In this document: one piece after another, positions 1-40,848 of the stretch
Numbering within the stretch: the first letter of the stretch is position 1
How the letters are laid out: every line of letters starts with the position of its first letter
NCBI GenBank assembly: GCA_002633005.1
Contig: NMRA01000790.1
Span: 102,136 to 143,522, forward strand
From: Phoronis australis
Lineage: Eukaryota; Animalia; Phoronida
DNA length: 41,387 nucleotides
Direction of reading: 5' to 3'
The notes under the pieces: generated by a model
Seen by the model: the letters and a program-made list of their open reading frames with translations, nothing else
What the model was told of the DNA's origin: nothing
Databases searched by the model: none
Translations under genes and position numbers: made by a program

Positions 1-3000
1 TTTGTGGTCACGTGCCGGGTACAGGCCCATGAGACAAGTTGCAGCAACAAACTCAGTACGAATCCATAAACCCTTTTACACGCACAATTAAATGCGCAAA
101 ACTGGTCCTGTATTTCTTAAACCTTTAATTTAATGCTCAAGCTATACAACGAGTGCGTGTTGAAACACAACATTGACCTTGGACCAAAGATGGACTCCTT
201 GCATCAGGACCCTAGTAAGCGAGGGGAGGGTGAGTGCCACCCAAAAAAATTGCATGCCTCAGGGTTAAACCATGGCAACAGACAAAGGTGTGTGGCTGGG
301 AAAGACAAAAAAGAAAGACTTCGAATACTGATCAGAGAGAAAACTCAAGATAACTTTGACAACTCGGTATCAGTGTATGGTTTACCATTTGAGGGCCCTG
401 ACCAGAACAATTGTTCTTAGGGTCTACGTTTTTACAGCATAGGTCGTCCAAGCGCTCTTGAAAATGTGCACTTAATCATTCATGCATGTATTTCGAAAAT
501 TCGAGAAAATTTGTGAAGCAAAAATTTTGCGGAGTGTATTAATTCAGTCCAAGTTTTTCAGTGGTCCATACGCGTTGCACTACAGGGGGGCTGAGGGGGC
601 TTTAGCCTGCACTTTTTTCAGTGCTGCGCCCTCTATACACCTCCGACATGACACTGCCAACTACTCACGAGGGGAAGTCGAGATTCCAAATTCATCAAAA
701 ACACAAAACATTCGTGCAGAAGCTGTCTTGTAAGAAATGGCGATGCGTCACTGAACTTAGTTGAAGGCTGAAGGCTAACTTGCAAAAATTCGATCCATCA
801 TCAGACCACCATATCGCAAAGAAGGACACTAAACGATAACAGTGATATTCATGAATGTATTGAATTAAAAACTAGATTAAAGAAATTCAAAAATTTAAAA
901 ACCGTAGATCGGATCGAAAAAGAAGTTCAAGTCATTGCTCATAAATTTGGAAAGATTGTCTTTGCATTTCCTTGATAATTGTCAGTTCCCAGTAGTATTG
1001 TGCAATGAATTTAGGTTCTTCTAAACCGAATCGTTTGCTTGACATTCCCGTGCATACTGCAAAGGCTGGACACGTCATGACTCAGTGACGCACTCACGTT
1101 AAAAATAAGGTGTAGTAATGCAGTAGGCTGCTTGCGTAGAATCCGCGCACAGTGATTGACGGGAAAAGAACTTGAACTGCAGGGGTTGAAATGTGTGCAT
1201 TGTTGGGACACGCGTTCCATAGCATTTTCCCCAGCCGCCCGGCAGAAGCTGGACCAGTGGCTGTGTTTCAACAAGGAATTTTGATACAGCTCTATAGGCG
1301 AAGGATTTTGATATCATATTTTTCAAAAAAATCTTCAGGAAATGACCGTATTAAAATGAACTTTTCCCGAAACTGGGTCAAACAAAACGACCTTGGAGCC
1401 AGCTAACACGGGTATAGGTTCGAGTTAAGCCGCACGTCTCAAATGAATCATAGCGGAGCTGACCAGCGACTAGCATTAGTTCGTCGAATTGCGCATGCAT
1501 GGATCAGACTTCCCGGAGACTCGGACGCCACGACACCGGCCACCGTGGCGGGAGCAGCTAATTTCTTGACTAACACCTGCTTCTAAATGTGGATTTAAGC
1601 AAAATGACAAAGACCACGCTTACACACATGCAAGCGTATCCAAATACAATTAAATGTATTTTCATGTGAAACCATTCAATGTTCTCGCTTTGAACATTGA
1701 CTTGTGTGAGTTATTAATTTTCTTAGATCTGCCCAATCAGGTAGAACTGCGTTTCAAGTCATTCACTATAGGCACCTGAGGGTTCAGTTTGGAAGCTCGT
1801 GTCGTATGACGTCATATGACGTAGGAGATGCGAGCCTCATTTGCATATATTAGTGACACCTGTTGGTTCGAAAAAGAGGATCATGCTCGAGTACATGCCT
1901 GGGAAGAGGCATCTTTTGGAAGGGTAAAACATGTCATGTTCAAAGCATCCTAGTGCCATTAATATGCAGTCTTTGGGGACCAAAGTGGTGTCATTTTATA
2001 GCTAAAGAGTTAAGCTTTCAAACACAATGCTTGGATTTCAGACGACTACAACATTTACTTTTGAAATCACTTTTGAAAACACGTTAACATGCGCTAAAAC
2101 AGTTGTCCCTTCCTGGTTATCTCTTCCTGGTAGTAGCAATAAAAAACTGTGGCAATGTTCTTTGATACTTTACTCTTGCACTTAAGTTTAATTCAGTCGT
2201 ATTACCAGTATTTACTGGTACCCTTATGTCACTATAATAAATAAATACACACACACCAGTGTTTTTACTTGCCTCATTTAAAATTCGTCTGCCATCAAAG
2301 TCAAATCCTTTTAGGTTAGGTGTACTGCAATTTTCATATTTTGGATATTAAGGAAAAGGCATAGAATTGCAATTTTGGTTGAGTATTTGTATTCAATCTA
2401 CCATTCACAGTAACCCTTTACATACATACTGTTTAGTGTAGTATTATTTTTCTTTATCCCGAGCTCGACGCTAAACATAACGTCAACTCATCAGTTGCTA
2501 CGTAGCAAAAATCCCTGGTCACCAAATGCGAACTAAGGTGACCAAACGTCGCTGACAAGTGCTGAAAATGAAGTACCTGGAGCACAGGCTCGTCTCCTAA
2601 GGCAGACAATGTAATTCGAATCCCTCCAATTGTGCCAACTCGTTCTGAGTTCCATCTGTTTCAGGATTCTCCCTTAATGATAATTCAACTATTGCGCAAA
2701 AGCCCGCCTCGTGTTTTTGTATCCTAATTCCCTTTCTGTTAATTTGCTGAACAGGAAAATTACAATTAGTCACACATTTTTTTCATTTGCGAGGCATATC
2801 ACATGCGCGCATCCAAGGGGGCTCGAACGAGCCCCTCCATTTTGCGAAATGGGCAAAAAGTCCGAGAAAACGAGGTCCACTTCAAAAAATTATTGTACAT
2901 GTAGGCTGGGTGCACGCATGTATCACTGTCATTTCACTGCGAAATAATAAAAACCAGCACCACCATGCAATTCTATGCCAATCATTTGTCTTGTAACATT

Positions 3001-3421
3001 GCGTAATATTTCTAAACAGTGCGTAACCATGTTTGACTGCATTGATGTAGAACTGTGAATCCTGGGTAGCACTGCATCCTGGGTAACACTGTACAGCGTA
3101 ACTTAGCATCTTGACATTTTGTAGCTGAATTATACAACTCTGTGGATTTTGTACCTGTCGCAGCCTAATTAAAGATTTCTAAAATTTCAGTTGATTGAAA
3201 TCTATAATGCCCATTTTGTGGAAGTGCATAGCTTTTAACAAACGTTGAGTATGTAACACAATAACCATAAACTTTTACAAAACAGACTAGGTGGATTCAG
3301 TGTTTTTTCAAATGCTTTGCTGTCGTGCATTTGGCTCACACTAGCTACAGTAGGAACCAAGGCGCTAGCATGGCATACTTTGTGTAATTGTCAATAAGTT
3401 CCTACTCTTTTGCTCTTTCAG

Positions 3422-3787
3422 ATGTTGTTTCTGCAGGTAGTGTGCGTTCAACTGATGAAGTCATTGGTGTCAACGGTGGAAACGTTACTTTGAGGATTAG
3501 TTTTGTTGTGGAGAGTGGTCAACACCTATCATTTATCCAACTGCTTAAAATCTCAGCAAATAGTGAAATATTTAACACTTATTACATCGGTCCACAGGGT
3601 CCAAGTTTTTTTGACGGAGCTTTTAACGTTAACTATTCATCTCGTGCTTCAACTGACTATTCTGCTGGAAAAACCGACTTCACAATCACTTTGTCACAGC
3701 TTACTTCTGATGATGAAGGACAGTACAAAGTGAATGTTTTTTACGAAGCGGACATGGAATCTTCATATACCCGGCTTGTTGTAGACT
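3422..3787 (+). CDS. Exon encoding an Ig V-set-like domain lacking the canonical Cys pair (IgSF surface protein)
   Basis: Acceptor ctcttttgctctttcAG (3421) and donor GTAAGT (3788); 366 nt, phase 1-1. Translation has G-x-NVTL (B strand), FTITLSQLTSDDEGQYKVNV (E-F strand, D-x-G-x-Y motif) and TRLVV (G strand). A second in-frame acceptor exists at ctgcAG 3436. Confidence 0.88.
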
Positions 3788-3857
3788 GTAAGTAGTGTTT
3801 TGGTGGCATGGCTATGGTACTTTGTCGTTTATTTTGCGTCAAAAATAATTGCCAAGA

Positions 3858-6800
3858 TTGTCATTTTTCAATTTTGCAAAGGCTGATGAACTTGCTTTCA
3901 ATATTAGAAATAGAACCAAATATTATTTTATGACATCAGTACCGAACAAAAAGTTAATAACTGACTATGATTGGTTGATGAATTTGAGAAATTGATCTGT
4001 TTGTCTGCCATATTATGTGCGAAATAAATGAAGACTTAACGTATTCATGTTTGCTACAGAATGGAACCTCTAGTTAACTTTAAAAGCGATACCTTGCGTG
4101 TTTATTGTGGAAAAAAACATTTTAGAGACCCACCGCATAGAAATTTGTTTACTACTTTTTGAATCTCCCGCCAGGCACAGAGCAGCTCCGTATGTACCCA
4201 CAGTCCTTTCATTAACTGAGTGGCTATAATATTGGGTAGACTAGGAGTGCATGAAGCATAGAAAGATGCCGTTGAAAACGTTTAAGACAAAATTGTAGCT
4301 TTGATCCTGAGACAGTTTTTTGGGTCTGCGTGCACACGGTCGTTGAGAACGAATGCACCAAGTCCGAGTCTCCGCCCGGCAGGTTTTTTTCAAGAACATA
4401 GCAAGTTGTGAAAATAGGTATATCCTCACATAACTTCATTGATTTCATCGTTTATTTGACGTTTCTCTGCTTCCATCACGTATCCATTTCGCGTTTTCAC
4501 CACCGTCTCGATTTCTATTCTCTATTTTGTTTTTGGTTTCTAGATATCAGTCTCTATGGCGCGTGCTTCATCTGTTGCGTATCGCAATGGACTATTGACC
4601 TACTTACTGCTGACTCCGACTTTGACCTAGGTTAACTCGATTTACTGAAGTCTGACATGCAAATTATAAACGGTTTAGCAATAATTAAGTTAAGTACCCA
4701 CTTTCATTTGCATTTGACGTTGGGAGCGAATGTCGAAATAACGAACACTGTTAAGCATGTAAAGGTTATATTGACGAAAAAACATGTTTCCACTGAATGA
4801 TTATGCGAAAACCGAGAGATTTTGAAACTTGTGGCATTTTCTCGGCTTCGGCAAATCAACAAAATTTCAAATTAGGAATGCGAATTCTCGAGCACGTTTC
4901 GGTGGATTTCACTGAAACTGTCCAATTTTTGTAAATATGTATAACTCTCAAAAACACTGTTTAAACCCTTAAATTTGTTGTACTGCGCCATAGACGAATA
5001 AGACTGCTATTTTTCACAAAAATGGCCTGTGTTTTACGAGCTAATTTGACGTAGGAAACAAACTAATTGAGTACTCAAAAATTTTTAACAGCGTTTTTCT
5101 GAAGATATCGGTAACTTTTCGTTTGAAGAAGGTTTCCATTAAATCGACTATTGGATGTTTATGGCACCTTTGTTAAAAAGGAATCTTTGATTTCAAATTA
5201 GTACCCCAGATATTTCTATTTATAGATTAGAAAAAGGCTGATTAACCACAAGAGCATACATTTTCAGATCGCTCCAGTGACTTCGTTTTGTTTCATTTAT
5301 CGACAAAATATTAAAACATATAACCAGAAGACCAATTCGTCCATCCCAATGATACAATTCACATTAATATCTGACATCTGCAAAGTAGAGAAAAAAAATA
5401 ATTGACTGTCGTGTAGTTACCGGCTGACTGCACGTTTTGTTTTAGCGAGTCATCACCGTGAAATCTGTATTTGCGTGTTCAAAACATTTACGCGACGTTC
5501 CGTGCTCTTACACAACAAATACAGATAGCCAAATCTTTCCGCCGTCAATTAGTATGTTTTTCAAAGTATATTTCCAATTAGGACATACTGAAATTTTGGT
5601 ATGAAAATCTTAAATTTTCGTACTTTTGGACTGGCGTGTATCATACCACTGAAATTCATGTTGACAAAAAGCTCGTGTGATCGTCTATTCAATGCCAGAC
5701 TTTATAATTTAATGTTATTCACGGTGCGAATGCTCGGCTGAGAATATGCGGGCTAGATCTACTTGAAAACAAATATAGCGACGACATTACCGCTGTTGAT
5801 GACACTGACGATTTCTACTCCAGTGATACGGAGTGCTGAAATAGGCCTTGTGCCTTTTAAATTGTGAATTAGTATTTTGTAACTAGTGATTTTTTATCAT
5901 TTGTTAACGAAAACAATAGTACTTGAACATGAAGTTGGCGAGATGAACAAGTCATTCTGGTCTCGATACACACGGAAAATCCCCAACGGAAATCTGCATC
6001 GTGAAACACGACCCGTAGTCAATTTGAGGGGACCTTCGTGCATATTAACTCAATTCTTAACACTATTTACGCATCCTGCTTCTATTGATGATGACAAAGA
6101 AGGCTGACCAGGTACCATTGCATTTCATTTACTGACAATTAGCAGTGGCACTTACATGTATGAACCTTTCACTGTACATGTTTATATCATGCAAGAGTCC
6201 AAGTATGTGGGAAGAGGCCTAACAGTTATTCAACAGAAAGGGAATTTATTGTAGTCTGTCTTGAAACTTTTAACTCATTTCTTTTCTTATTTACAAATTG
6301 ATGACTCATATTTTGTGTTTTTGGTCAAACCTTCACTCTCGTGTATATATTTTCGAATATTTCCAGAATGACTTTATTCTTTGTGATTTTATGAAGACTA
6401 AACGCTGAAATTTCCGTGCAGTTTTATTGTACTGTTTTGCTTCTATGATTTGTTTATGTCTTGTAGTTTCGCTGGTTTTAGAACAATATTATCATGATGC
6501 AAATTTGGGAATTACGGCGTTGTCCCGTTGATCCCAACGTGTTCGAATCTATAGCCCAACAACAAGTTGGATGACCCCTGTAGCCAATATCTTACATGGC
6601 TGGTTAACTCCATTCTGGCATTTATGGTTGGAGGGCCAGCTCTGTTTTGTTCGATAATTGCTCTAATCTCCAATAAGATGGTATCTAGCTTGACTAGGCT
6701 GTGCTGTTAAAAATAGAAGTTAAGTTATAAGAAATTTGAACATAAACCAATAGCAATTCTGAATTCCTGGTCAATTGTTGATCATGTTTGCTTTTTAGAT

Positions 6801-7176
6801 CGCCTATCTACAACCGAAGTTACAACAATCTATTCTTTGGGAACTACCAATTCACTCTGGGTTTGACTTTGTTGACACGTAGTCTGTAATAAACCTGGTA
6901 GATAATTGGCCTGCCTGTTGCCATAACAGGCAAAAGACTGTGCTTGGCAGTAGATTAATTATCACCCTCTACGTCTGGCAAAGTCGCGAGAGAACGCCGC
7001 CGTGTCTGAAGCGATTCCCGATCAACATTTCAAAAATTTCCTGAAGTCTTATTGGCCAGAAAAGTGGGATGATTCTAGACATAAAACTCAATTTAAAAGT
7101 TTACACAACATTCTTTTCCTGCTTGGTTATGAGTTAATGATTAAGTAAAGACGCTTCTGGGCAAAAGTTCGTCAAT
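3858..7176 (+). repeat. Copy 1 of a 2.2-3.3 kb direct repeat (5' part of the V-C2 intron)
   Basis: Starts ttgtcatttttcaattttgcaaaggctgatgaacttgcttt, also seen at 15118 and 20348; colinear to gcttctggg..aagtt..tcaat. Segments at about 4030-4570 and 6510-7005 are absent from copies 2 and 3. Confidence 0.9.
6511..6735 (+). mobile_element. Possible tRNA-derived SINE remnant
   Basis: B-box-like GTTCGAATC at about 6541, followed by about 170 bp of body and a short repeated tail (gaagttaagttataag); segment missing from paralogous copies 2 and 3. Confidence 0.3.
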
Positions 7177-8425
7177 GGTCGCGTTGTAGGATTCTGGATT
7201 TTTTATGTTCTTATGCATAACTAGAAAAGTAATGAAGGCAGAAGTTTCATCTTTGCTGTAGCGATGGTATGGGAACGCATGGAATATTTTAGGCTTGAGG
7301 TGGTCAATGCAACGTAATTTCGTAACATTATTGTACGTCGAACTGTTTTAGAAATGACAGTAACTTTCTACGAGTCTTTGAATACTGCTTCATTATTTTC
7401 TTTTAAGCTTAAATTATCTTGCTCAACTAGATACTTTGAATTCTGAAGTTGTTATATGAACTATCTGCCTGATAGATTACCTTACAAAATGATTGCGGAT
7501 ATCGATTTCTTTGACGTCTGATGACAATACACGCATCGTACGACTGGTAACAATTAACTTGGTCCAGCGTTGTTTTCGGATTTTCATCCAGCTGGACTGT
7601 AACACTGAAACGTCTCTTGACTTGTTTGTGTAAAAGTCGCCCTAAATCTGGAGTTTGACGTCATATTTGTGTTGGTTGGCTGTAACTTTACACAATTCAT
7701 AAGTTCATTCAATTTTACCGTTATGAAATAGTCAAATGGAAGTTGATAAACCGGGGTCAAAAGTTAACTTGAAGTAGCCACTAGAGAACGACCAACAGAC
7801 AATTCTTTGTTTGTTTGGCCAAAGTTCATTTCCTAAGTCATAAAATGATGATTTCCAACTGAGGGTACACACATATATAATAATCCAAATTGGCCGTCTA
7901 AGCTTGATGATCAGTTTGACGTCCCAACAGACCACAGAGGCGACTCAACAAACGACTGCTAGCAGACTGTGACTGGCCTGCTGCTGGTCGGCTACACGAC
8001 CGGTCGTCAAACGATTTCTGACGTGTCGGAAAAAATCTTATTGTGTGTTTTTCTTCCAGAAATATTCTTTTACTGATGGATTAAAACCTATAGTTGTCGA
8101 GACATTTGACTAAATACAAAGACTTGTCGAAAAGTTCTACTATGGTTTGTCATTGCTGTGCTCACATCCTGAACCTGATGGACGGGCCACAATACATTAC
8201 TGTTTTCATGCCGTTGTGGCCCATTTTTTGTTGTGAATAGTGCGTAAAATGTGCACAAATACAGCGCGGTAAGAAATCTACTGAAACGGCACGTTTTACC
8301 ACCCGAAATTGCGTTTCAATGCATGTCAGAATTTTGTGCAAGTGTCAGGGTGACTTTAGGTATCTTCATCAGTTGTAACTAGATTAGTAGCTTGGTGATG
8401 TAATGCGCTTGTTCTCGTTTCGCAG

Positions 8426-8749
8426 TCCGTCCAAGTACACCATCTATATCTGGAGCCCCGACTGAGCCTGTTCTTGGTGGAGCAGCACCAATTGTCCTAC
8501 AGTGTGTAGCCAACTTGGGCAAACCACAGGCATCTATGGTGTGGTCACGTCGGATTGGCAGCGCTGCTTACACGAATATTACTGTGGGTACTTCCAAAAT
8601 AACCAATAACAGCGATGATGGAACCAGTAGCGGCACCAGCGAGCTGACGGTCAACTTGGATGCTGCTGATAACGGTGTACAGTTCAGATGTCAAGTGTCC
8701 AACAGGCAGGCTACTTTGTCAGCTGAAACTGGGGTCATTGAGGTGTCTG
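8426..8749 (+). CDS. Exon encoding an Ig C2/I-type domain with canonical Cys and Trp
   Basis: Acceptor cttgttctcgtttcgcAG (8425) and donor GTAAGT (8750); 324 nt, phase 1-1, in frame with the V exon. Translation RPSTPSISG...IVLQCVANLGKPQASMVW...SELTVNLDAADNGVQFRCQVSN is the CD80-like C2 pattern. Confidence 0.92.
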
Positions 8750-8789
8750 GTAAGTCACTACTTAAGTCGTGTTAAAGCACTTAGTCCTG

Positions 8790-9213
8790 TTTTCAGGCAA
8801 CAACTTGCATTATTAAAAATAAGGTAAACAATGTTCTTAAAGGGGCTGAGGATGAGTATTACGACCAAGTTATAAATGAAAACAAATCTAACAGAAAATC
8901 TCTCTGGAAAATCATGAGATCAATTTTACCTAACAAGTCCAAATCTGTCGCAAATGAATTTCTAATTGGTAACGATTTTGTTTCGGACAAAACTAAAATA
9001 GCAAATGCATTTGCTGACTTTTTTACTGGCATTGGCCAAAAACTTTCTGAAAAATTCAGTATGTCGACTATTGAGCTCCCGCCGAAGATACAGGAGGGGA
9101 TATCGTTTAAGTTTCAAGACATTCAAGTCGATTACGTCCCAGAACAAATGAAAACTCTGAATTCTAGTAGTGCCAGTGGCATCGATAGCATTGATGCCAA
9201 ACTATTCAAATTG
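8790..9213 (+). mobile_element. Non-LTR retrotransposon (CR1/L2-group) ORF2 fragment, endonuclease-RT linker
   Basis: Translates KNKVNNVLKGAEDEYY..INENKSNRKSLWKIMRSILP...IANAFADFFTGIG...FKFQDI...LNSSSASGIDSIDAKLFK, the typical pre-RT segment; truncated where the Academ sequence begins. Confidence 0.85.
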
Positions 9214-12200
9214 CGTACCTGTATTCGTCCTGTACAGATGATTGATGCGTCTGTAGCTAGTACAAGATACACGAGGGCCTATGTGCACATTCTGTATCTG
9301 CTTTGTTGTTTTTCATTACCACTAAGCTTAATTTAAAAGAAAAGTCAAAAACTAGGGCCTTGTGTTACCAAAATTCCACAACATGGAGTCATAAACAAAC
9401 ATGTATTACCAACTAAAGTAAATGTTTTCATTTCTTGACTTCTTGTTGAGTTGTTGCAATAAAATGTGTATGTACATGGATAAAGATTAAAGGAATACCA
9501 CATGTGTGAATGAGGGTTACAAGCCAAGAGGACTGACAAATGTATACTTAGTCATCATCTATATTTGGTTGTTCTTCACAGTCTTCAACGTCTGCCTGTT
9601 TGCTAGTGTACTGATTGCAGTAGATATCCCCTGTCTCACACTAGCAATACTCTGTGCAGGACAGGCCAGCGCCATTACAACTACAGTGAGTGTGTCGCTA
9701 CATGCCTTTCCTTCTGCACTGCAACTACAACCAACTACGTCCAATAGCGCCTGGGGCGCAACAGCTGGTGTTGAAACAGCTGGTGCTACTAAAGAGCCGT
9801 CTACTTTCCAGCCAAAGTTGGCAATACACTTAGTTTCCTCTGGTGGATCTCCGCGGTCAGCTCCCTTTCATAACAACATCTGAAGGTGTGCTCGGAGTAC
9901 GTGCAAGTACACATTGGCATCTGTTGGTGGAATTTTCTTCAGTGGTGGTGGCTTCTTTCTCTCTCGGTAGAACTGGGTACGGGCATCATTCATTGTTTGA
10001 GAACTCGTCTGCCCATACAAAGGTAAGAAGAATGCATATGCAGTTTCCAAAAGCTCATCGTTGGTTGCACCAGACTCTCCCAATACCTGGTCGAGGCCTG
10101 GAATGTTAGTTTCAAGTACTTTGAGGGCTGTCAGCTTTCCTTTTCCGCAATCGGACATAGCATGAATTTCTAGGAGCTGGCTGCACTTTCTGGGGTCTAA
10201 TTTCTGAACTGTTTCATTGATGTCCAAGATATCTCCATTCCATTTCTCCATTTGAATATTGGCATCAACACTCATTCGTGATGTCAAATAAATGAATAGC
10301 ACAAAGACAGCGGCGTCGTCACGGAGGATTCGGACATTGTGGACTCCTTCTTCCACCGCTTTTAACATGTAGCTACTGAGTGTGATGTCTGCTTCAGCAT
10401 GGGTAACTGTACAGTCGTTTTTGCCGACCAGCTCGATGTTATGTGGAAGAGGATGGCTACACAGAAGACTGTTGAGCAGGGATTTGCTCTTGGTATTTTG
10501 CAGAATAGTTTCTCGGCATGGAAAGGGAGTGTTTGGGGTTAGTAGATCTTCTTTAGTCTTTCCTCGTCTTGACCTCTCATGATCCTTTGCACAAGGAGTT
10601 TCATGGTCATAGCTGTCGAATAGAACTATTTTCTTTGAAGCTGGTGGATAGTGGGCTAGTCGTGTACCAAATCTTGCCGCTAAATGTCCTGTAGTCCCGT
10701 AGACTGGCCAGACTACATGATACAGAAGCTGACCAGCATCAATCAATTTCACGTCTGGAACAGAAGGGTTTGCAACAGAGACACCGAGAGACTTGGCCAG
10801 GATAGCCTTATCACCCTTCCTAAGGCAGCCGTATTCATCAATCAGGGATGTAGGTACTGGACTTAGCTCGTGCTGAAAGACATCTGCCATATCAATGTTC
10901 CGTTGCTGCCCCACAACTAACAGGCGACTAAACAGCGTCTCCATGTCGTAAATGGCCTTCCCCTTGACAGTTACAGGCTTGTTCAGCAGCTCCATTGTTT
11001 TCACTTTTTCTTGATTGTTTTATGAAAATCACTGCTTAGCGAAGCGTTGAACTGGCTACTCTGCTCACTCCCGATAGCCAATGCATCCTGGACATTCACT
11101 ATGTCTGAAGCTACTTGGCCATTGATTCTATGTTGTATAGAAACGGTTGTTGATCAGTAAGGGGGTGTCGGTGTTTTGTTAGTTCCTCTGAAATCTTTAT
11201 CCGATCTTCTTCGTCAAGTTTCCTTTCTCTCTCTCCTTCCTCCTTGTGCTTAGCCATTTCTTCATCTACTACTCTGTGTTCCTTCTGCTGTCCTCCAGTT
11301 TCATTGTACATGCACTCCATTGCAATGTTAAGGTGGGTACACACATTGAAACTGTTTACCCACACAGCCACCTGCTTGGCACTTGTTGAGATGCCCTTCA
11401 TACCTCCAGCACTTTTCCCCCGCCTGATGTATGTCTGTTCTCCAAACTGATCTGCTGGCACTGCAGTTCCTCTGTCGGAGTGTCGACAGCCGTGAGCACC
11501 TTTCAGTAAATCTGCATTGGCATTCTCAGTGTACCAATACAACCCAGGAAACTCATAAGAGTGTGCATCGTATCCGAGTGAAGTACGACGTTGCTCCAGC
11601 GGAGAGGGTCGCTCCACTGTATTAGACATGCAGTTTGCTATAACTGAAGGTCAACAGTGAGATGAATGAACTGCATTCCAAAACTGTTAAGAGTGCGCTT
11701 AAGATACCCAAGAGTTGTCATTACTGTGTTTGGGTGAGCAGGAGGCGTGTCGATCATCGGTCCGAAGATGTAAAGTGTCTTGGGCTTCTGGTTCGCACCT
11801 GTCACCACTCGGTCTTGCTTAGAATTAAAGCCTGCCCACTCAAGTGGTCTGTCATTCAGGTGGACATGTGACAACCAAGCAGCATCTCGCTGGTGACTGA
11901 ACATGACTGCCTGAGACTGAAGCTGCACCTCCTCAGCAGAGAGAAATTTCTCCGGAAGCAAAGGAGGGTTCACTTTTGAAGGTCCAGTGTAGTGTTCCAG
12001 TTGTAGACATTGTTGAGAAACACGCATAGAGGAGGCCTCGTGTTTTGTAAGTCGGGGAATATTCAGCTGTATCACCCCAATGTTTTCTAAATTGACAATG
12101 CTTAGAGGGTGCTGGGAACTCCATGACCATGGCGTGGGTGCTCTTCATCCCCTTGGGGCTTGTAATACACAAATCGTAATTGTCAACCCAGCTAAATATA

Positions 12201-14470
12201 GGACCGTTATTCACATTTAAACCAAGTTTCTTGTGGGGTTCATCCTTGTTATCTGAAACAAACTTAGCCACAGATTTTCGAAATCGTAGAACTTCGTCAT
12301 ATGAAGATGTTATGCCATAGTCATTACTTGTGGTGGAGCGTAACAGCAAGTCCAAGTGTTGTTTGATTCCGGCCTGCGCCTTCTACATGCTGTTGAATGC
12401 ATTGGGCCAGAGCCAATGACACTTTCGTAATATTGCCTCCAGAAACAAGACTAGATACTACTTTAAGAAGAGTAGCACTGGTGCTCTGGATGACCTTTTT
12501 ATGAGAGTAATTGTTAAGGTTGTAGTCGACAGGCTTAGATGTTGCATTGACTTCATTGCGAATCTTCCTCACTAGCGTCTCTATCTCATCCTCAATGCTG
12601 CCATTATTGCTCCCCTTGGTTATCTCGATAACTTTCCCAAGGGTGACTTTAAATCCAACTATGGTCTCAGAGACCTCGATGTGGATTAAAAACAAAGTGT
12701 CGCTAAAGTAGTTTGTGATTCTGGATACCAGCTGTCGTATTGTCATATTGCCTGAAGCAGCAAGGTACATAGAGTAGAGTTCCGATGTCGTCCACTTCTC
12801 TGTCTTGTTTTCAGTCAGCATCGTGATCATAGCCCTTAGGGCATCCTACTGTGACGCCATGGGGCTGTGTCTTGACAAGGGAACAGCTCGAACTTTATGG
12901 TAACACTGGACGTGGTACTGTGCGTCAGCAGCATGCAGATAAAATACGCCACAGAGTCGAACAGCTACGTCATTATCCCACTGGTCCCCTCTCTTATCAC
13001 AACTGTTCTCCAAGTGTTACTTGAACGTGATTTTAGTATCTCTGTCAAGCGTTGTGCATTGTCTCACCTGAACTCATCTTTTTGGGTTCTTCGGGTCTTT
13101 CAGCTTACATTCATTCCCACACAAGAGTCAGTCTCTCTTAAAAATAAAATTACTACACTGAGACTTCCACAACCTTTTGGTGGACCATGCTCAGTTTGCG
13201 TTGGCTTTTTTCTCTGCTCAATGGTACTACTCTTTGAAGTGTAAGAACAGTAACATTATTTGTGAGCAAGAGAGATAAAATGTTTTTGTAAAGTTCATCT
13301 TGCTTTAATTTACTGGTTGTGATAATTTTCTGCACTGCAATTGCCTTGAACATTTGTAGTTCTCCGCTGGCGTTACAGGGACTAAACGGGCACTTCCCTT
13401 CCCTCGTAGACATCTTGAACGTAAGAGAGAGTAGGGAGTCCCTACCTAAAATAAAAGAAATCACTGACAGTGTGGGCACTTGTTCAATGAATACCGACGC
13501 ATGACCAAGTCTATGAACCATAAAACATTGTAAAACACCCTTATACTTGCTAGGACTGGAAAACATTCCGTAACTTTTCGAAAACGGTTGGACACTTGCA
13601 CTGTTGATTCCACATTGATATGGTTTTTCATGGATATCCTACTTTTTAAAGAAATCAATGAAGGGCGCTTACTACAGAAGTTTTATCGGTAACGATAATA
13701 CTCAAAAATAGTTAATTATTAATCCTAATACACATTTGTGAGGCTTTCAGTCAAACAATCCACGGTATAGTATTCATGACAAACTAATATGTAGCGACCT
13801 TACCCAAACTAGTAAAACCAGACGATCCTTAAGTACACAGTCACCATCTTTTTGAACAAATTCTCAAGTGTGGTGTGAACTCAGCTTCACTGTACTTTGT
13901 AATCATTTTAAGATACAAAATTAATACAATGTATATTATAAAATTATGTCAACTAGTGAAACAAACAACAAAGTTTAGAAAACTAGATAGCTTGAAGGGA
14001 AGACAAAATCAGTTCCAATTTGCATCATAGTTTTGGTACATTGTAAACTATCAGTATCAGCCTTTTAAGAAATTACCTAAGCGTCTGTGTGTGGTAGATA
14101 ATAGGTGAAATATTGGAAAAAATGTTTACCATCGGGATTGTTAGTCATTTTTGACCTTTGACCTCTGATTTGACCTTGAAATTGACCCCGTATCAATAAG
14201 TTAATGTAAAAAATGGACTCAGCATCATAAAATATGGTAAAAATGATGTATTGCATGACCCTGTATTTCAGATATCTGAAAATTTGAAAATAGGCTGAAA
14301 TTCAAGATGGAGGATTCCGCCATCTTGAATTGCAAAAAATGCTCAAAGTTGCGCAAAGTGCAACCAAGCTAATTTTGTTCTCCTTATCACATTTACTATA
14401 TTTCAACAAAAAAGCTTTACAGTAATCAACACTGCAGGGTTTACTATGGAGGCTATTGGGCCAGCAACTA
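9214..14470 (-). mobile_element. Decayed Academ (AcademX-type) DNA transposon, only one terminus retained
   Basis: Carries the transposase-XPG-Cys-rich pseudogene. Region about 14120-14470 resembles an Academ long TIR (tgacct repeats, caagatgg...ccatcttg palindrome) and ends in ...gcaaCTA, i.e. TAG on the minus strand. No matching inverted copy near 9200-9500. Boundaries approximate. Confidence 0.75.
9548..13413 (-). pseudogene. Frameshifted Academ-type transposase fused to XPG/FEN1-like nuclease and C-terminal Cys-rich domain
   Basis: Consecutive minus-strand ORF pieces: MSTREGKC..., WVDNYD...STHAM, TVDLQL, MHTLMSFLGCIG, DQFGEQTYIRRGK, HAEAD...DDAAVFVL...HAMSDCGKGK...PPT..LHVLRAHLQ, CSCSAEGKAC...CNQYT...DDD-stop. 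Multiple stops, frameshifts and probable internal deletions. Confidence 0.85.
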
Positions 14471-14522: not shown

Positions 14523-14998
14523 NNNNNNNNNNNNNNNNNNNNNNNNNNNNNNNNNNNNNNNNNNNNNNNNNNNNNNNNNNNNNNNNNNNNNNNNNNNNNN
14601 NNNNNNNNNNNNNNNNNNNNNNNNNNNNNNNNNNNNNNNNNNNNNNNNNNNNNNNNNNNNNNNNNNNNNNNNNNNNNNNNNNNNNNNNNNNNNNNNNNNN
14701 NNNNNNNNNNNNNNNNNNNNNNNNNNNNNNNNNNNNNNNNNNNNNNNNNNNNNNNNNNNNNNNNNNNNNNNNNNNNNNNNNNNNNNNNNNNNNNNNNNNN
14801 NNNNNNNNNNNNNNNNNNNNNNNNNNNNNNNNNNNNNNNNNNNNNNNNNNNNNNNNNNNNNNNNNNNNNNNNNNNNNNNNNNNNNNNNNNNNNNNNNNNN
14901 NNNNNNNNNNNNNNNNNNNNNNNNNNNNNNNNNNNNNNNNNNNNNNNNNNNNNNNNNNNNNNNNNNNNNNNNNNNNNNNNNNNNNNNNNNNNNNNNNN
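14523..14998. other. Assembly gap (476 N)
   Basis: Run of N. Left flank is a short repeat (acatgaccgc x2); right flank starts inside a tandemly duplicated unit. Confidence 1.
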
Positions 14999-17470
14999 AT
15001 TCACATATTGCTCGCTAAAAAGATCACGTTTAATAACCAAGACTATAAAATTCGTGTTTATTTGAGCTACCTATTTCCAGTTGCCATTCCTGTACGCCAC
15101 AATCCAATAATCTCTACTTGTCATTTTTCAATTTTGCAAAGGCTGATGAACTTGCTTTAAATAATTGAAACAGAAACAAATATTATTAGATGTCCTCTGT
15201 ACAAAACAAGAAAGTTAATAACTGACTATAATTGGTTGATGAATTTGAGAAATTAAGCTGCTTGTCTGCCATGTTATGTGCTAAATTCGTATGTTGTGTA
15301 TCGCAATGAACTATTGACCTACAGGTGTACTTACGGCTGACTCCGCCTTTGACTCGACTTACTGAAGTCTGACTTGCCAATTATAAACGGTTTAGCGATA
15401 ATTAAGTTAAGCTCCCACTTCTAATACAATTGGCATTGGGAGCGTGTGTCAAAATAACGAACACGGTTAAAGCATCTTAAGGTTATATTAACGGAAAAAC
15501 ATGTTTCCACCGAATGATTACGCGAAAACCGAGATATTTCGAAGACTTGTGACATTTTCTCGGCTTCGGCAAGTCAACAAAATTTGAAATTAGGAATGCG
15601 AGTTCTTCAAAACGGCTCGATGGATTTCACAGAAACTTTCCAATTTTAATAAATATGTATCATTCTCAAAAACGATGTTTAAAGTCCTAGTTTTATTGCA
15701 CTGCGCCATAGACAAAAACGATTGCTATTATTCACAAAAAATGGCTTAAGTTTTACGAGCTAATTTGGCGTAGGAAACAAACTAAATGAGTAATTGAAAA
15801 TTCTTAACAGCCTTGATTAAAGGTATCGGTAAATTTTCGTTTAAACGAGGTTTCATTGAAATCGGCAATGTGGTGTTTGGGGTACCTTTGTTAAAAATGA
15901 AATTTTGATTTAAAAATAAGTATCCCAGATATTTCTATTTATCGATTGGGCTGGTCAACCATAAAAACATACATTTTTCATATCGCTTCAGTGTCTTTGT
16001 TTTGTTTCATTTACCGACAAAATATTAAAACATATAACCATAAGACCAATTCGTCCTTTCCAATGATACAGTTCACATAGACAACTGACATCTGCAAAAT
16101 AAAGAAAAAATAATTAACTCTCGTGTACATGTAGTTTCCTGCTAACTGCGCGATTCGTCTTAGCGAGTCATCATCGCGAAATATGTAATTTGTGCGTTTT
16201 CAAAACATCGGCACATTTACGCGAAGTCCCATGTGCTCACACAACAAGCAAAGATAGCCAAGTTTTTCAGCCGTCCATTAGTATATTTTCAAAATAAATT
16301 TCCAAATAGGACATAATCAAATTTTGGTATAAAAAGTTAAATTTTCGTAGTGATATTCATGATGACGCAAAGTCCGTTTAATCGTCTTTGCAATGCAAGT
16401 CTTTGTATTTTAATGTTATTCATGGTGCGAATGCTCGGCTGAGAATGTGCTTGCTAGCTCTACTTGAAACAAAAAAGCAACAACATCATCGCTGCTGATG
16501 ACACTGACGATTTCTACTCCAATGATATCGATTGCTAACAAGGGATTTTTTGATCATTTATTAATTAATACAATAGTACTTGAACGTGAAGTTGGCGAGA
16601 TGAACAAGTCGGACTGATGTTGATACACACGGAAAAGCATCAACGGAAATATTGTTCGTGAAACAGGACCCGTAGTCAATTTCAGGAGACGGCGGTGAAG
16701 ATTAAATCAATTCTCAATAATATTTACTCATTCTGCTTCTATTGATGATGACAAACAAGGCTAACCAGGCACCCTGGTATTTCATCTAGCGACTGCTAGC
16801 GGTAGTGGAACTTATGAACTTCTCTCTGTGGCTTTTTATATCATACAGGAGTGCACATATGTGGGGATGAGCCCAAAACCTCAGTATTCAACAAAGATTA
16901 ATTTATTGTAGTATTTCTTGAAACTTTTAACTCATTTCTTTTCTGATTCATGATTTCACGGTAAATGTTTACGACTCTTGTTTTGTGTTTTTGTTCAAAC
17001 CTTCACTTTCACGTTTATGTTTTCGATTACTTGCAGAATGACTTCATTCTGTGTGATATTATCAAGACTAAACACTAACAGATGATTTCATAAAGGTGGT
17101 TTAAAGTTAAACCTGGTTTAAACTGGACTTAGACCAGGTTTAAAGATAAACTGCATTTCATAAAGATGGTTTAACTTTTAGACCAGTGGTCTAGTGAAAC
17201 CTGGTTCAACTCCAGTTTAGACCTGGTCTAGGTCAGTTTTTATTTCACCAACGAGGTCTATATTCTTTAGACCTGTATTAAGATCTCAAACCATGTTTAA
17301 CTTTAGACTTGGTCAGACCCAGGTTTAACTATTAAATATGTCAGACTTGCATCCATGGTATAGGTACAACTGAATGATGCCACGGAGAGCATTTGCAACG
17401 GTTTTAGAGCGAAAATGGACTACCGGTATTTTCAATATTCAGTTTTACTATGACACAAGATCAAACGAAG

Positions 17471-17616
17471 CTGGGGCAGATCTAAGATGGGGGGACTGTC
17501 AAGGACTTTTTGAAAGGGGGGCAAGTCAACAATTTGAAAATTATAGATTTGATATCTCTAAAATCAAGGGAAAAAATGGGACTTCGGACCCCTTGAGCCC
17601 CGTGGATCCGCTTATG
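17471..17616. mobile_element. Small degenerate MITE nested in the Harbinger element
   Basis: Ends ctggggcagatcta ... tggatccgcttatg are imperfect inverted repeats of the common caggggcggatcca type, with G-rich and C-rich subtermini. Confidence 0.4.
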
Positions 17617-17739
17617 CGTAGACCAGTATTTGCTGGAGTGTGTCCTGCGGATTTCTCAGAATACGACTGGTCGAGCAGGGCGTCATCGTCGTAAGCGCTA
17701 CGGATTTGACTACAGACAGCATCTTCTGATTCTTCTGAC

Positions 17740-18535
17740 TTATTTTTTTATGTAATATTTACAATGAGGGTAGCCCCATCAGTTCACACTGCTTTCCATG
17801 AGGGCCCTCAATAAAAATAAACAGAAAGTAAGACAAAACAGAATTACACAATGAAAGACAAATTTAAGTAATAAGCAAAGAATTAGAAATTAACATGGAA
17901 AGACTGATGAAGCAAAATAAAAATAAAATTTGATAAATAAAAGATAAAGAAATTAAGACAAGATAATTAACTAAAAAATAAAAAAATATAAATATAAATA
18001 TAAAAAATTAAAACAGACAATAAATAATTAATAAAAGTAAGACATTATATATTAAATAACAAATGAATTAACATGCAATTTAGACACTACATGGAGTTAA
18101 ATCTATTTCTTATAATCCTTTTGAAAGTTAGAAAGGATGATGTAGATTTGGCATCTGCGGGGAAAGAGTTCCATAAAAAGGGCCCGCTGTAGGAAAATGA
18201 TTTTTCCCAGTCTCGCTTCTGCGTTTAGGAAGATTGAAATCAGATGATGATGAGGACCTAGTATTGTAGCGATTAGTAGTCATCTTAAACTTAGCACATA
18301 AATAAGATGGGACAAGGCCTTTAAAACATTTGTACATACAACAAGCAGATAGGAATTGATGTCTTGTGTGAATTTTCATTATAACTGTCTCTTTATGACG
18401 GTTTTCGATACTAATATCTCTAACACCAACTCCCAGAATAATCCGGGCAGCCCAATTTTGGATAAACTGGATGGATTCCATATCCTTGCCTGATGCAACA
18501 CCCCACACCAGGAGGCAATAATCTAGGTGAGTTCC
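17740..18535 (-). mobile_element. 3' end of an L2/Crack-type LINE
   Basis: THLDYCLLVWG...IQFIQNWAARIILG...MYKCFKGLVPSYL...RYNTRS...LPK..SETGK is the ORF2 C-terminus, followed by a T-rich 3' UTR and the tail gagggcctcatggaaagcag..actgatggggctaccctc. Confidence 0.88.
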
Positions 18536-19448
18536 ACCTCCACTGTTCTCCGATATAATGTTGCCAGGAAGGGGTCTTGCCCCCCCGCTTTGGCCGCGGA
18601 AAATAAACACTAAAATGACAAGGAAATAAATTTGGGCATGTAACATGTTACATTTAATCGGGAGCGTGTTCTTTAATGTTTGTGTGTTGGTTACAGAAAT
18701 TACAGTTTTCCTCATGAGAAAAGCTTTTAGATGTTTTTTGTAAATGTCTGCACTGATTCTACTCCTGTATGCCATTGTATACCCACGTGATCAAGGTTTC
18801 ATTGAAGCACTTCAATAGTTTCTTTGTTGGGTTTACCCAGCTCGACACAGTGAGGTGCCTTTGATACTTTAAACCTGGTTTTACTGAACCAGCTCCCTGG
18901 TCTAGCAAAACCAGGCTTTCAGACTCTTAAACCAGGTTGGTGAAATGCAAGTCAGGTCTAAAATTAGTTCAGGTTTAGGAAGACCAGGTTTAAGTCTAAA
19001 ACCTGGTTTTGTTAAACCACCTTTATGAAATCGGCTGTAAAAGTTTTGTGCAGTTTTATTGTATCTTTTTACTTCTAAGATATTAAGTCTTGTAATTTTT
19101 GCTGGTTTTCAAAAAATATTATCATTATGCCAATTTGGGTCCGAAGCGATTCCAGATAAACATTTTCAAAATTTCCTGAAGTCTCATTGGTCAGAAAAAA
19201 TAGGATGATTCTAGAGGTAAAATATTCAATTTAAAATTGAACTAAAACATTTTTTCCAACTTGATTATTTATTAATGATTAATTAAAAAGATGCTTCTGG
19301 GCCGAAGTTGATCAATCGCCCATCGGTCTCGGTCGGTACGCGGAATAATGTCTCTTGGGATATTACTTCATGTACGCCACTCTCGATTGTTTTTGTCTTG
19401 ATATTTCATTGGCTATGTGCAAGGATGTCTTTTATATAACTTTTACAG

Positions 19449-19496: not shown

Positions 19497-22400
19497 GTAA
19501 GTTTGAATTACAGTTTTATTCTATCATACCGCACTCGTCCGAGTCTGTGCTCAGCTGAAAGGTGATTAGCTGAAGATGAGCGTTAATCAGGACGAGTAGG
19601 GTATAGTCACAGTGTTGACATGTTAACAGCGGCCTTCTTGTTTTACTTTATTCAGACATGCTCTTGATGTGATTTCTGATTCAACTATCTTTCTCTTTAC
19701 CAGAGAAATCTGATTGCAATTTGGGAAACAACTATGGGTTGTAAATTGCTGCCAATGCTCAGGTTTCCAATCGATCTTGTTTTTGGCAAGAGAGTTTGTG
19801 TCGGAGGATTACTGGATTAGATTACATTCCAATGCCTAAAAATTCGAATTCCATCAAGGAAACATGTCGATTTTCAGTAAAAAGTTCATTTTGTTTACCG
19901 TTTCATGTATTATACAAAGGGCACTTCTGTTATTCGTGTCCTATACAATGTCTCAACATACGCGGTTCCTAAAATAGAAAATGACATTGTCAAAATTTAT
20001 TGAATGACCTCACTCAGCTCTAGAAGATTCCATTACCTGCCTAAGCACTCAAATTTTGACAGATATCCTTCAAATCTAAACCGCTTCTCTTCATTGCAAT
20101 TGAATTTAAGGGTCCAAGTTTTAACGCCGGCTAATCTGCTGGACCGTTTATAATCATCATCATCATTTATTGTACATCGTAGGCTTTACCTACTCATACA
20201 CAAAGTATTCTTCTCTAATAAGCTCTTAAACAATTCACATATTGCTCGCTATAAAGATCACGTTCAATAAGACTATAAAATTCGTGTTTATTTGAGCTAC
20301 CTATTTCCAGTTGCCATTCCTGAACGCCACAATCCAATAATCTCTACTTGTCATTTTTCAATTTTGCAAAGGCTGATGAACTTGCTTTAAATAATTGAAA
20401 CAGAACCAAAGATTATTTTATGACATCTGTACAGAACAAGAAAGTTAATAACTGACTATAATTGGTTGATGAATTTGAGAAATTAAGCTGCTTGTCTGCC
20501 ATGTTATGTTCTAAATTCGTATTTTGTGTATCGCAATGAACTATTGACTCCGCCTTTGACTCGACTTACTGAAGTCTGACTTGCCAATTATAAACGGTTT
20601 AGCGATAATTAAGTTAAGCTCCCACTTCTAATACAATTGGCATTGGGAGCGTGTGTCAAAATAACGAACACGGTTAAAGCATCGTAAGGTTATATTAACG
20701 GAAAAACATGTTTCCACCGAATGATTACGCGAAAACCGAGATATTTCGAAGACTTGTGACATTTTCTCGGCTTCGGCAAATCAACAAAATTTGAAATTAG
20801 GAATGCGAGTTCTTCAAAACGGCTCGATGGATTTCACAGAAACTTTACAATTTTAATGAATGTGTATCATTCTCAAAAACGATGTTTAAATCCTAGTTTT
20901 ATTGTACTGCGCCATAGACAAAAAAGATTGCTATTTTTCACAAAAAAATGGCTTAGGTTTTACGAGCTACTTTGGCGTAGGAAACAAACTAAATGAGTAA
21001 TTGAAAATTCTTAACAGCCTTGATTAAAGGTATCCGATTATTATTCGGTAAATTTTCGTTTAAACGAGGTTTCATTGAAATCGGCAATGCGGTGTTTGGG
21101 GTACCTTTGTTAAAAATGAAACTTTGATTTAAAAACAAGTATCCCAGATATTTCTATTGATCGATTGGGCTGGTCAACCACAAAATCATACATTTTTCAT
21201 ATCGCTTCACTGTCTTTGTTTTGTTTCATTTACCGACAAAATATTAAAACATATAACCAGAAGACCAATTCGTCCTTTCCAATGATACAGTTCACATAGA
21301 CAACTGACATCTGCAAAATAAAGAAAAAAATAATTAACTCTCGTGTACATGTAGTTTCCTGCTAACTGCGCGATTCGTCTTAGCGAGTCATCATCGCGAA
21401 ATATGTAATTTTTGCGTTTTCAAAACATCGGCACCTTTACGCGAAGTCCCATGTGCTCACACAACAAACAAAGATAGCCAAGTTTTTCAGCCGTCCATTA
21501 GTATATTTTTCAAAATAAATTTCCAAATAGGACATAATCAAATTTTGGTATAAAAAGTTAAATTTTCGTAGTGATATTCATGATGACGCAAAGTCCGTTT
21601 AATCGTCTTTGCAATGCAAGTCTTTGTAATTTAATGTTATTCATGGTGCGAATGCTCGGCTGAGAATATGCTTGCTAGCTCTACTTGAAACAAAAAAGCA
21701 ACAACATCATCGCTGCTGATGACACTGACGATTTCTACTCCAATGATATCGATTGCTAACAAGTGATTTTTTGATCATTTATTAATGAATACAATAGTAC
21801 TTGAACGTGAAGTTGGCGAGATGAACAAGTCAGACTGATGTTGATACACACGGAAAAGCATCAACGGAAATATTTTTCGTGAAACAGGACCCGTAGTCAA
21901 TTTCAGGAGACGGCGGTGAAGATTAAATCAATTCTCAATAATATTTACTCATTCTGCTTCTATTGATGATGACAAACAAGGCTAACCAGGCACCCTGGTA
22001 TTTCATCTACCGACTGCTAGCGGAAGTGGAACTTATGACCTTCTCTCTGTGGCTTTTTATATCATACAGGAGTGCAAATATGTGGGGATGAGCCCAAAAC
22101 CTCAGTATTCAACAAAGATTAATTTATTGTACATGTAGTCTTTCTTGAAACTTTTAACTCATTTCTTTTCTGATTCATGATTTCACGGTAAATGTTTACG
22201 ACTCTTGTTTTGTGTTTTTGTTCAAACCTTCACTTTCACGTTTATGTTTTCGATTACTTGCAGAATGACTTCATTCTGTGTGATATTATAAAGACTAAAC
22301 ACTAAAAGTTTTGTGCAGTTTTACTGTACCTTTTTACTTCTAAGATTTTAAGTCTTGTAATTTTTGCTGGTTTTCAAAAAATATCATTATGCCAATTTGG

Positions 22401-22699
22401 GTCCGAAGCGATTCCAGATAAACATTTTCAAAATTTCCTGAAGTCTCATTGGTCAGAAAAAATAGGATGATTCTAGAGGTAAAATATTCAATTTAAACTT
22501 GAACAAAAACATTTTTTCCAACTTGATTATTTATTAATGATTAAGTTAAGATGCTTCTGGGCCAAAGTTGATCAATCGCCCTTCGGTCTCGGTCGGTACG
22601 CGGAATAATGTTTCTTGGGATATTACTTCATGTACGCCGCTCTCGGTTGTTTTTGCCTATTGGCTACGTGCAAGGATGTCTTTTATGTAACTTTTACAG

Positions 22700-23411: not shown

Positions 23412-23957
23412 ATTATCATCATCATTTATTGTACATCGTAGGCTTTACCTACTCTAACAAAAATACATACATGAAAATTCAAATGCTACATTAATAGTAT
23501 TTACACGGAGAGCAGCTCTTCTCTTAGAGCCATAACCTTCTGAATATACAATGCAAGGCGCTGGATACTGTCATGGTAATTCTGTTGAAACAACCTAACA
23601 AGAGAATAGTTACCATTCACAAGCTCTGGTAGAAGTTTTCTTCTAAGGTCTCCAAGAACAAGGCATGAACACATGAAATGAGGCTGTTCTTCAATTTCAC
23701 CCAGACAGCATATGCCGCATATTCTCTCACTTCTAGGAATACCCATATGCCTCCCTTTCTCTATATTAAGTGAGTGACCTGAACATCGAAATTGCGCAGG
23801 TATTCTTCTCTAATAAGCGCTTAAACAATTCACATATTGCTCGCTAAAAAGATCACTTTTAATAAGACTATAAAATTCGTATTTAATTGAGCTACCTATT
23901 TCCAGTTGCCATTCCTGTACGCCACAATCCAATAACCTCTACTTGATTACCATAATA
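23412..23957 (-). mobile_element. 5'-truncated LINE with C-terminal CCHC region, (TGA)n tail and 10-bp TSD
   Basis: Minus-strand translation LLDCGVQEW...EQYVN...AQFRCSGHSLNIEKGRHMGIPRSERICGIC..EIEEQPHFMCSC; tail aataaatgatgatgat; TSD accgtttata at 23402-23411 and 23958-23967; empty site atcgtttgta at 33276-33285. Confidence 0.88.
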
Positions 23958-25399: not shown

Positions 25400-25435
25400 A
25401 TACCATGAAACCCACTGGAAATGAAGAAGGTGGAG
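25400..25435 (+). CDS. Stalk microexon B1 (36 nt): (N)TMKPTGNEEGG
   Basis: tgtgatttacAG ... GTATGT; 36 nt, phase 1-1, open frame; five paralogues in the window. Confidence 0.75.
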
Positions 25436-25974: not shown

Positions 25975-26010
25975 ATACCGTAAAGCCAACTGATAATGGA
26001 GAAGGTGGAG
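25975..26010 (+). CDS. Stalk microexon B2 (36 nt): (D)TVKPTDNGEGG
   Basis: atgatttacAG ... GTATGT; phase 1-1, open frame. Confidence 0.75.
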
Positions 26011-34641: not shown

Positions 34642-34677
34642 GTACCATAAAACCAACTGGAAATGGCGAAGGTGGAG
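34642..34677 (+). CDS. Stalk microexon B3 (36 nt): (S)TIKPTGNGEGG
   Basis: tgtgacttacAG ... GTATGT; phase 1-1, open frame. Confidence 0.75.
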
Positions 34678-35220: not shown

Positions 35221-35256
35221 ATACCGTAAAGCCAACTGGTAATGGAGAAGGTGGAG
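35221..35256 (+). CDS. Stalk microexon B4 (36 nt): (D)TVKPTGNGEGG
   Basis: ttgtgatttacAG ... GTATGT; phase 1-1, open frame. Confidence 0.75.
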
Positions 35257-38125: not shown

Positions 38126-38161
38126 GTGCCATAAAGCCAACTGAAAAAGGAGAAGGTGGTG
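38126..38161 (+). CDS. Stalk microexon B5 (36 nt): (G)AIKPTEKGEGG
   Basis: ttgtgatttacAG ... GTATGT; exon is well conserved although the surrounding intron copy is much more diverged. Confidence 0.78.
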
Positions 38162-40453: not shown

Positions 40454-40534
40454 CGTCAGCTGGACGGGACGATACTCCAAACAAAATCGTGATCGGAGCA
40501 GCCTGTGTTGCGATGGCTATGATCTCCACCATTG
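40454..40534 (+). CDS. Juxtamembrane/hydrophobic exon: (A)SAGRDDTPNKIVIGAACVAMAMISTI
   Basis: Acceptor ttttgttgtAG (40453) and donor GTTAAG (40535); 81 nt, phase 1-1; hydrophobic run begins after K. Read-through of the donor gives G then stop TAA (40537-40539). Confidence 0.72.
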
Positions 40535-40848
40535 GTTAAGTCTTCGAAGACATTAGAGAGGGCCTCTGTGAAAACCTTCGTTTGATTTACAGCTGATTTA
40601 CAGTTGTACCACAATTGTCGAAAACAGAAAAACGAAGTTCTCCAAAGTTAAAACAGTATGTCGAGAGTGTTGAGCAAAATGTACGAATTGATAATCTAAC
40701 GTTTATTTTTATTCTTCTTCGACGGGGTTTTGCTTCTTTACTTGCCTGACATCCTTCCTTTGTATGATGTTCAATAGTTACGTGTTCGATGAACGTGTAA
40801 ATTATGATTAGAATTTAGTGTTAAGTGTTTTTTTTGTTATTCCTCTAG

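Follow-up and report, generated by a model that had tools for sequence, protein, structure and literature searches.

A V-set domain without its Cys-Trp-Cys pin, spliced to a CD80-like C2 domain in Phoronis australis

Can an immunoglobulin (Ig) domain without a single cysteine or tryptophan be a genuine V-set domain, and what might its protein do? The question is raised by an exon of Phoronis australis in a stretch of 41,387 nucleotides (nt) from contig NMRA01000790.1, the whole of which is called the window below. We found that this exon encodes a V-set domain in which the entire Cys-Trp-Cys pin (the Cys23-Cys104 disulfide and Trp41) is replaced, that it is transcribed and spliced to a second Ig domain, and that divergent related transcripts exist.

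The V domain and its missing pin

The argument turns on the following positions.

3422 to 3787, plus strand: V exon, supported by splice sites, Pfam V-set, RNA depth and an RNA joint; likely the end of a signal peptide followed by a Cys- and Trp-less V-set Ig domain.
3496 to 3498, plus strand: Ile25 (ATT), standing where the B strand would have Cys23; its distance from Gly18 is that of the pattern G-x-x-x-x-L-x-C; MAFFT places a gap here.
3532 to 3543, plus strand: C strand, Trp41 position; Leu40 (3541 to 3543, preferred register) or Phe37 (3532 to 3534, MAFFT register).
3712 to 3732, plus strand: F strand D-E-G-Q-Y-K-V; the equivalents of Asp98 and Tyr102 are retained, and Val103 (GTG) takes the place of Cys104.

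The V exon is 366 nt long. Its acceptor is strong, with pyrimidines at 13 of 14 positions and then CAG, and its donor is GTAAGT. The open frame is the one read from 3424; frame 1, read from 3422, is closed. A first-pass annotation of this DNA had described a Cys-free exon with strands NVTLRISF, FIQLLK and DEGQYKV, and all three are present as quoted, at residues 20-27, 37-42 and 97-103. The lack of Cys and Trp was borne out, neither residue occurring in the 121 whole codons. The split codons (xAT at the 5' end and TTC, for Phe, where the exon meets 8426) add neither.

The comparison with the Pfam V-set profile (PF07686) that the first-pass annotation had called for placed the domain above the curated cut-off (30 bits against 26; E 6.2e-7) over nearly the full profile (positions 4-108 of 109). 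In ESM-Atlas the best matches scored 0.96-0.92, and the 10 best family-bearing matches all belonged to the same Ig family or clan. These look-alikes were V-set clusters with names including nectin-2 and CD200; the two best clusters were poorly annotated, and their few recorded members are cnidarian. A PDB sequence search gave weak matches only, such as pIgR and nectin-2 (58 sequences at E ≤ 10), and structure prediction gave low-confidence models (pLDDT, the predicted score of the local distance difference test, 64-67).

Huene et al. 2022 name eight V-set hallmarks (PMC9546547). Sequence alignment places five of them in the window domain: Gly16 (G18), Arg75 (R74), hydrophobic 89 (I88), Asp98 (D97) and Tyr102 (Y101). 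The Cys23-Cys104 disulfide and Trp41 are missing, and in their place stand Ile25, Val103 and either Leu40 or Phe37. When aligned by MAFFT with 28 canonical reference domains taken from four search matches, Val103 paired with the F-strand Cys in all 28. The register of the C strand is uncertain because MAFFT gaps the B-strand Cys and sets F37 on the Trp; either register is without Trp. To restore Cys or Trp, the pin codons would need 2, 2 and 3 base changes, more than a single sequencing error at each could produce, and sequencing error was ruled out as the cause of the loss. A pseudogene reading of the exon was also rejected. Cumulatively, these results support a real V-set domain with its whole pin replaced.

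As a rough control we used 77 Ig repeats drawn from 8 of 10 HMMER matches, the two non-Ig matches being excluded. The F-strand Cys was absent in 42 of the 77 and a Trp in the C-strand region in none, which shows only that, within this set, many members of which look bacterial, loss of Trp is a rarer event than loss of the F-strand Cys. Four of the control proteins (P0001, P0004, P0009 and P0010), which are probably bacterial, are large surface proteins with tandem I-set-like repeats, where the F-strand Cys is absent and the Trp kept in 41 of 41 repeats.

Transcription, the C2 domain and the predicted stalk

RNA from three 2026 runs (X1-X3) and one older contig set (X4), all under the same species label, was mapped to positions 1-9300 of the window. 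Depth in the bin 3411-3720 was 68, 49 and 69 across the three runs, on the strand expected for a plus-strand transcript, and 0-0.06 in the bin preceding 3411. The joint 3787 to 8426 (GT..AG) was carried by 53 reads in X1 and 33 in X2, by no read in X3 and by no contig in X4. Reads at least 99% alike to the window numbered 230 of 4835 in X1, 184 of 4180 in X2 and 18 of 3860 in X3. Two further features go with this joint.

3788 to 8425, plus strand: V-C2 intron, 4638 nt, GT..AG, from joint reads.
8426 to 8749, plus strand: C2 exon, whose product is a CD80-like C2-set_2 domain of canonical type with Cys-Trp-Cys kept (Pfam, RNA joint, Atlas).

The second domain is canonical, as the first-pass annotation had held, with two Cys and one Trp at the usual places. 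Its only Pfam matches at E ≤ 1 were C2-set_2 (37.9 bits), Ig_3 and ig, and its ESM-Atlas matches were C2-set_2 or nephrin-like clusters. Within the window, V and C2 domains occur only at 3422-3787 and 8426-8749, with no further copy of either. A V-set domain followed by a CD80-like C2 domain is the layout of nectin/B7-type proteins. The arrangement had at first been called CD2/CEACAM-like; the two-domain V+C2 part of that description stands, and likeness to CD2 or CEACAM past the domain count is unsupported because the second domain is a CD80-like C2-set_2 and the Pfam profiles and PDB chains matched, for C2 the best 60 of 116 chains, include none from the CD2 or CEACAM families. A tandem of a V and a C1/C2-like domain is a typical feature of adhesion and immune receptors at the cell surface (PMC11926128).

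Neither motifs nor a scan nor the RNA joints listed revealed a leader exon in 1-3421. None of the 15 joints listed, of 24, leads into 3422 from within the window, so the leader exon probably lies outside it, upstream. One loose read end in X3 translates to a hydrophobic leader-like segment. RNA reads of either orientation cover 1-2170 and 6511-7130 and show numerous differences, the picture given by dispersed repeats. Part of the V-C2 intron (3860-7180) recurs at 15120-19320 and 20350-22580 with 77-91% identity and no V or C2 coding remnant.

Downstream of the C2 exon, six more exons are predicted from sequence.

25400 to 25435, plus strand: predicted stalk mini-exon 1; 36 nt, phase 1/1, 12 amino acids, rich in Thr, Pro, Gly and Glu.
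25975 to 26010, plus strand: predicted stalk mini-exon 2.
34642 to 34677, plus strand: predicted stalk mini-exon 3, a copy of mini-exon 1 from the ~9.2-kb-spaced duplication.
35221 to 35256, plus strand: predicted stalk mini-exon 4, identical to mini-exon 2 at 35 of 36 nt.
38126 to 38161, plus strand: predicted stalk mini-exon 5.
40454 to 40539, plus strand: predicted final coding exon, for small residues, then a polar spacer, a hydrophobic end of 17 residues and a stop, with a second in-frame acceptor at 40460.

The mini-exons have acceptors TACAG and donors GTATGT and resemble one another at 27-35 of 36 bases; pairs 1-2 and 3-4 stem from the same ~9.2-kb-spaced duplication. Loose read ends past 8749 enter this sequence family (160 reads in X1, giving a mixed consensus with agreement 0.61). 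With five symmetric 36-nt mini-exons, the length of the stalk could vary by exon skipping or copy-number change. An assembly gap of 476 N in the gene's second intron (14523-14998) could conceal more of them.

The exon at 40454-40539, with a mean hydropathy of 2.21 over its final 17 residues, is predicted to encode a signal pattern of the glycosylphosphatidylinositol (GPI)-anchor type and no cytoplasmic tail. A scan of 53 acceptors, at a threshold that left out the mini-exons' own, gave two GPI-like candidates, 40454 and 33321, the latter sitting in duplicated intron sequence upstream of three mini-exons. The predicted product would thus run leader, V, C2, a stalk of at most 60 residues and GPI anchor, with ~320 residues minus the leader.

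Related transcripts and the search for relatives

Related forms were recovered as 30-base loose ends of reads. The X3 variant (317 loose-end reads, agreement 1.0) tracks the window to 3482 and then diverges. Translated by hand, it reads A-E-F-N-I-S-Y-A-L against V-T-L-R-I-S-F-V-V in the window, so that 7 of 9 residues are changed and the Ile at the Cys23 place is retained. In the X1/X2 variant (101 and 86 reads), the G strand joined to C2 differs at 10 of 30 nt, several of the changes being silent. Mid-C2 sequence occurs in four versions (window, X1/X2, X3 and X4), and beyond C2 the variants go on into sequence of that one mini-exon family. Most of the variation falls in the V domain and a single loop region of C2; these 30-base pieces were chosen for divergence and therefore give no rate estimate. 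An old paralogue is suggested as the best explanation of the X1/X2 variant, and the X3 variant may be either a paralogue expressed at a different stage or in a different tissue, or else an allele that has diverged strongly. The gene likely belongs to a small, variable family with divergent expressed members.

A conserved orthologue did not emerge from protein, HMMER or metagenome searches; the first-pass annotation had regarded orthology to a known low-polymorphism gene as incompatible with its proposal. The full HMMER search returned 10 matches at E ≤ 0.001, all of them partial matches to multi-repeat proteins through summed weak stretches, with no orthologue among them. Word-indexed searches for longer relatives yielded none among 377 candidates for V and 785 for C2, which are weak negatives, and scans of metagenome contigs gave 269 and 597 pattern matches, none of which was confirmed. 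We infer that the gene is lineage-restricted, the eukaryote coverage of the searched libraries being uneven.

Comparison with known systems and possible function

Domain 1 of the Alr proteins, which serve self-recognition in the hydroid Hydractinia, is, like the window domain, without both pin Cys and, bar two Alr, without the Trp, and it is classed as V-set despite this loss (PMC9546547). The authors of that paper stated in 2022 that no other V- or I-set domain without both disulfide and Trp was known to them. Searches of the literature outside subscription papers likewise turned up no pin-less V domain in invertebrates other than that of Alr. Both domains keep the Arg-Asp salt-bridge pair and hydrophobic 89, and both genes have one domain per exon and belong to a divergent gene family. 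The Cys23 position, however, is aromatic in Alr and Ile in the window and the X3 variant, and Tyr102 and Gly16, which the window domain keeps, are kept by a minority of Alr. After domain 1, Alr proteins, which have six invariant Cys, continue with Cys-less I-set domains, a Fn3-like domain, a transmembrane helix and a tail, unlike the canonical C2-set_2 domain, mini-exon stalk and predicted GPI signal of the window gene. No search showed sequence homology to Alr, which was compared by its published description. Ile at Cys23, the canonical C2 and the absence of a Fn3-like domain and of a predicted helix or tail rule out membership in Alr.

The tandem of a V and a CD80-like C2 (C1-like) domain is shared with nectin, B7 and CD200-type proteins, and the Drosophila Beat family has this layout as well. 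V domains of all these proteins mostly keep Cys-Trp-Cys. No orthology to nectin-, B7-, CD200- or Beat-type proteins was found. Sponge SAML/RTK V domains keep Cys-Trp-Cys (PMC11926128).

A disulfide-free N-terminal V domain is a feature that the window gene has in common with CD2/SLAM-type proteins, and its second domain is a C2-set_2 rather than the C2-set of the CD2 type. GPI-anchored members occur among CD2/CD58/CD48 and CEACAM proteins. The N domains of CD2, CD58 and CEACAM keep the core Trp, a point for which no literature passage was found, and SLAMF1 (CD150) may lack both disulfide and Trp. Neither the 6 Pfam families nor the 58 PDB sequences matched at E ≤ 10 showed likeness to a CD2/SLAM V domain, a weak absence because those domains diverge fast. 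No CEACAM chain was present among the PDB matches of V (58 of 58) or the best 60 of 116 of C2. The disulfide of CD58 (142-187) lies outside its 30-121 domain (PMC13600086), and the CEACAM family is placed in amniotes (PMC13262535). We rejected CD2/CEACAM membership as unsupported, the one tie seen being the disulfide-free first domain.

We favour, with a probability of roughly 55%, a tail-less, likely GPI-anchored surface ligand of adhesion or recognition whose V domain would bind a partner on a facing cell. By analogy, it would work like a nectin/B7-type two-domain ligand carrying an Alr-like V domain. The core, lacking disulfide and Trp, would be filled by Ile, Leu and Val, and the Arg-Asp pair and tyrosine corner would hold the V frame. 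The C2 domain and a length-variable stalk, built from at most five units of 12 residues, may project the V domain and set its reach, and the putative partner would be bound via the C-C'-C''-F-G face. Without a cytoplasmic tail, signalling could proceed only via the partner or a co-receptor. Family members that conserve framework and C2 and vary V strands and loops might provide a small code of binding specificities.

The same features can be read in other ways. Were the variants highly divergent alleles of one locus, with V domains binding only like alleles, the protein would be a self marker resembling Alr. The triple loss is the same as in Alr domain 1, and X3, without reads of the window V-C2 joint and with so few reads (18 of 3860) matching the window at 99% or more, yet holds a variant with matching framework patches. 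However, X1 and X2 each hold the window form and at least one other with many silent changes, which paralogues fit equally well, and the X3 sample might come from another tissue, stage or strain. Most Alr proteins have a transmembrane helix and tail, neither of which is predicted here, and domain 2 and stalk are unlike theirs; we regard such a self marker as doubtful. It is similarly unlikely that the protein is a microbe-binding receptor or decoy diversified by pathogens in the manner of vertebrate CEACAM N domains. CEACAMs bind microbes and so offer a precedent (PMC13262535), variation is centred on the V domain and a single loop region of C2, and the predicted GPI anchor and stalk fit an exposed decoy; no lectin-type or known microbe-binding motif was seen, however.

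Decay or drift of the V domain under relaxed selection, leaving it with no binding role or as a spacer, would agree with the lack of a homologue, the weak structure models and introns rich in duplications with a transposon-like insert. We consider it very unlikely, given a frame unbroken over 122 codons with five hallmarks kept, an alternating hydrophobic pattern that the variant retains, a distance of 2-3 changes between the pin codons and Cys or Trp, and expression of the V exon or a related form in three RNA runs. Lineage-restricted, variable, GPI-anchored Ig proteins in general fit the species-recognition class, and the protein predicted here would suit it. A gamete- or tissue-restricted protein of that kind is nevertheless highly improbable, as no result indicates gametes.

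The architecture itself is unsurprising, and recognition is its proposed function. The triple loss is real and uncommon, and it represents a different solution from that of Alr, with aliphatic rather than aromatic filling, the other hallmarks intact and another protein frame. The pin can be lost repeatedly, and profile searches will under-count pin-less receptors in invertebrates, in whose genomes such domains may be common yet unlabelled, as the unnamed Atlas clusters hint. A more far-reaching and improbable proposal is that pin-less V domains evolved in invertebrates a second time, independently, as a family of hypervariable self/non-self markers, convergent with Alr and set in a nectin/B7-type frame that has a GPI anchor and a stalk adjustable through mini-exon splicing. 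The small variable family to which the gene likely belongs is a place to examine a recognition role directly.

The introns hold other material. On the minus strand at 9868-13640, in the post-C2 intron, lie interrupted open reading frames (383, 179, 168, 149 and 173 amino acids, and others) of higher GC content. The frame of 383 amino acids has no Pfam match and 198 relatives at up to ~75% identity, mostly unnamed, a few being hypothetical proteins from one annelid and one fish; the region is likely a degenerate transposable element of unnamed kind. Fragments at 8785-9336 (plus strand) and 18128-18790 (minus strand), neither with a Pfam match, and at 23501-23809 (minus strand) look by eye like decayed frames of non-long-terminal-repeat retrotransposons.
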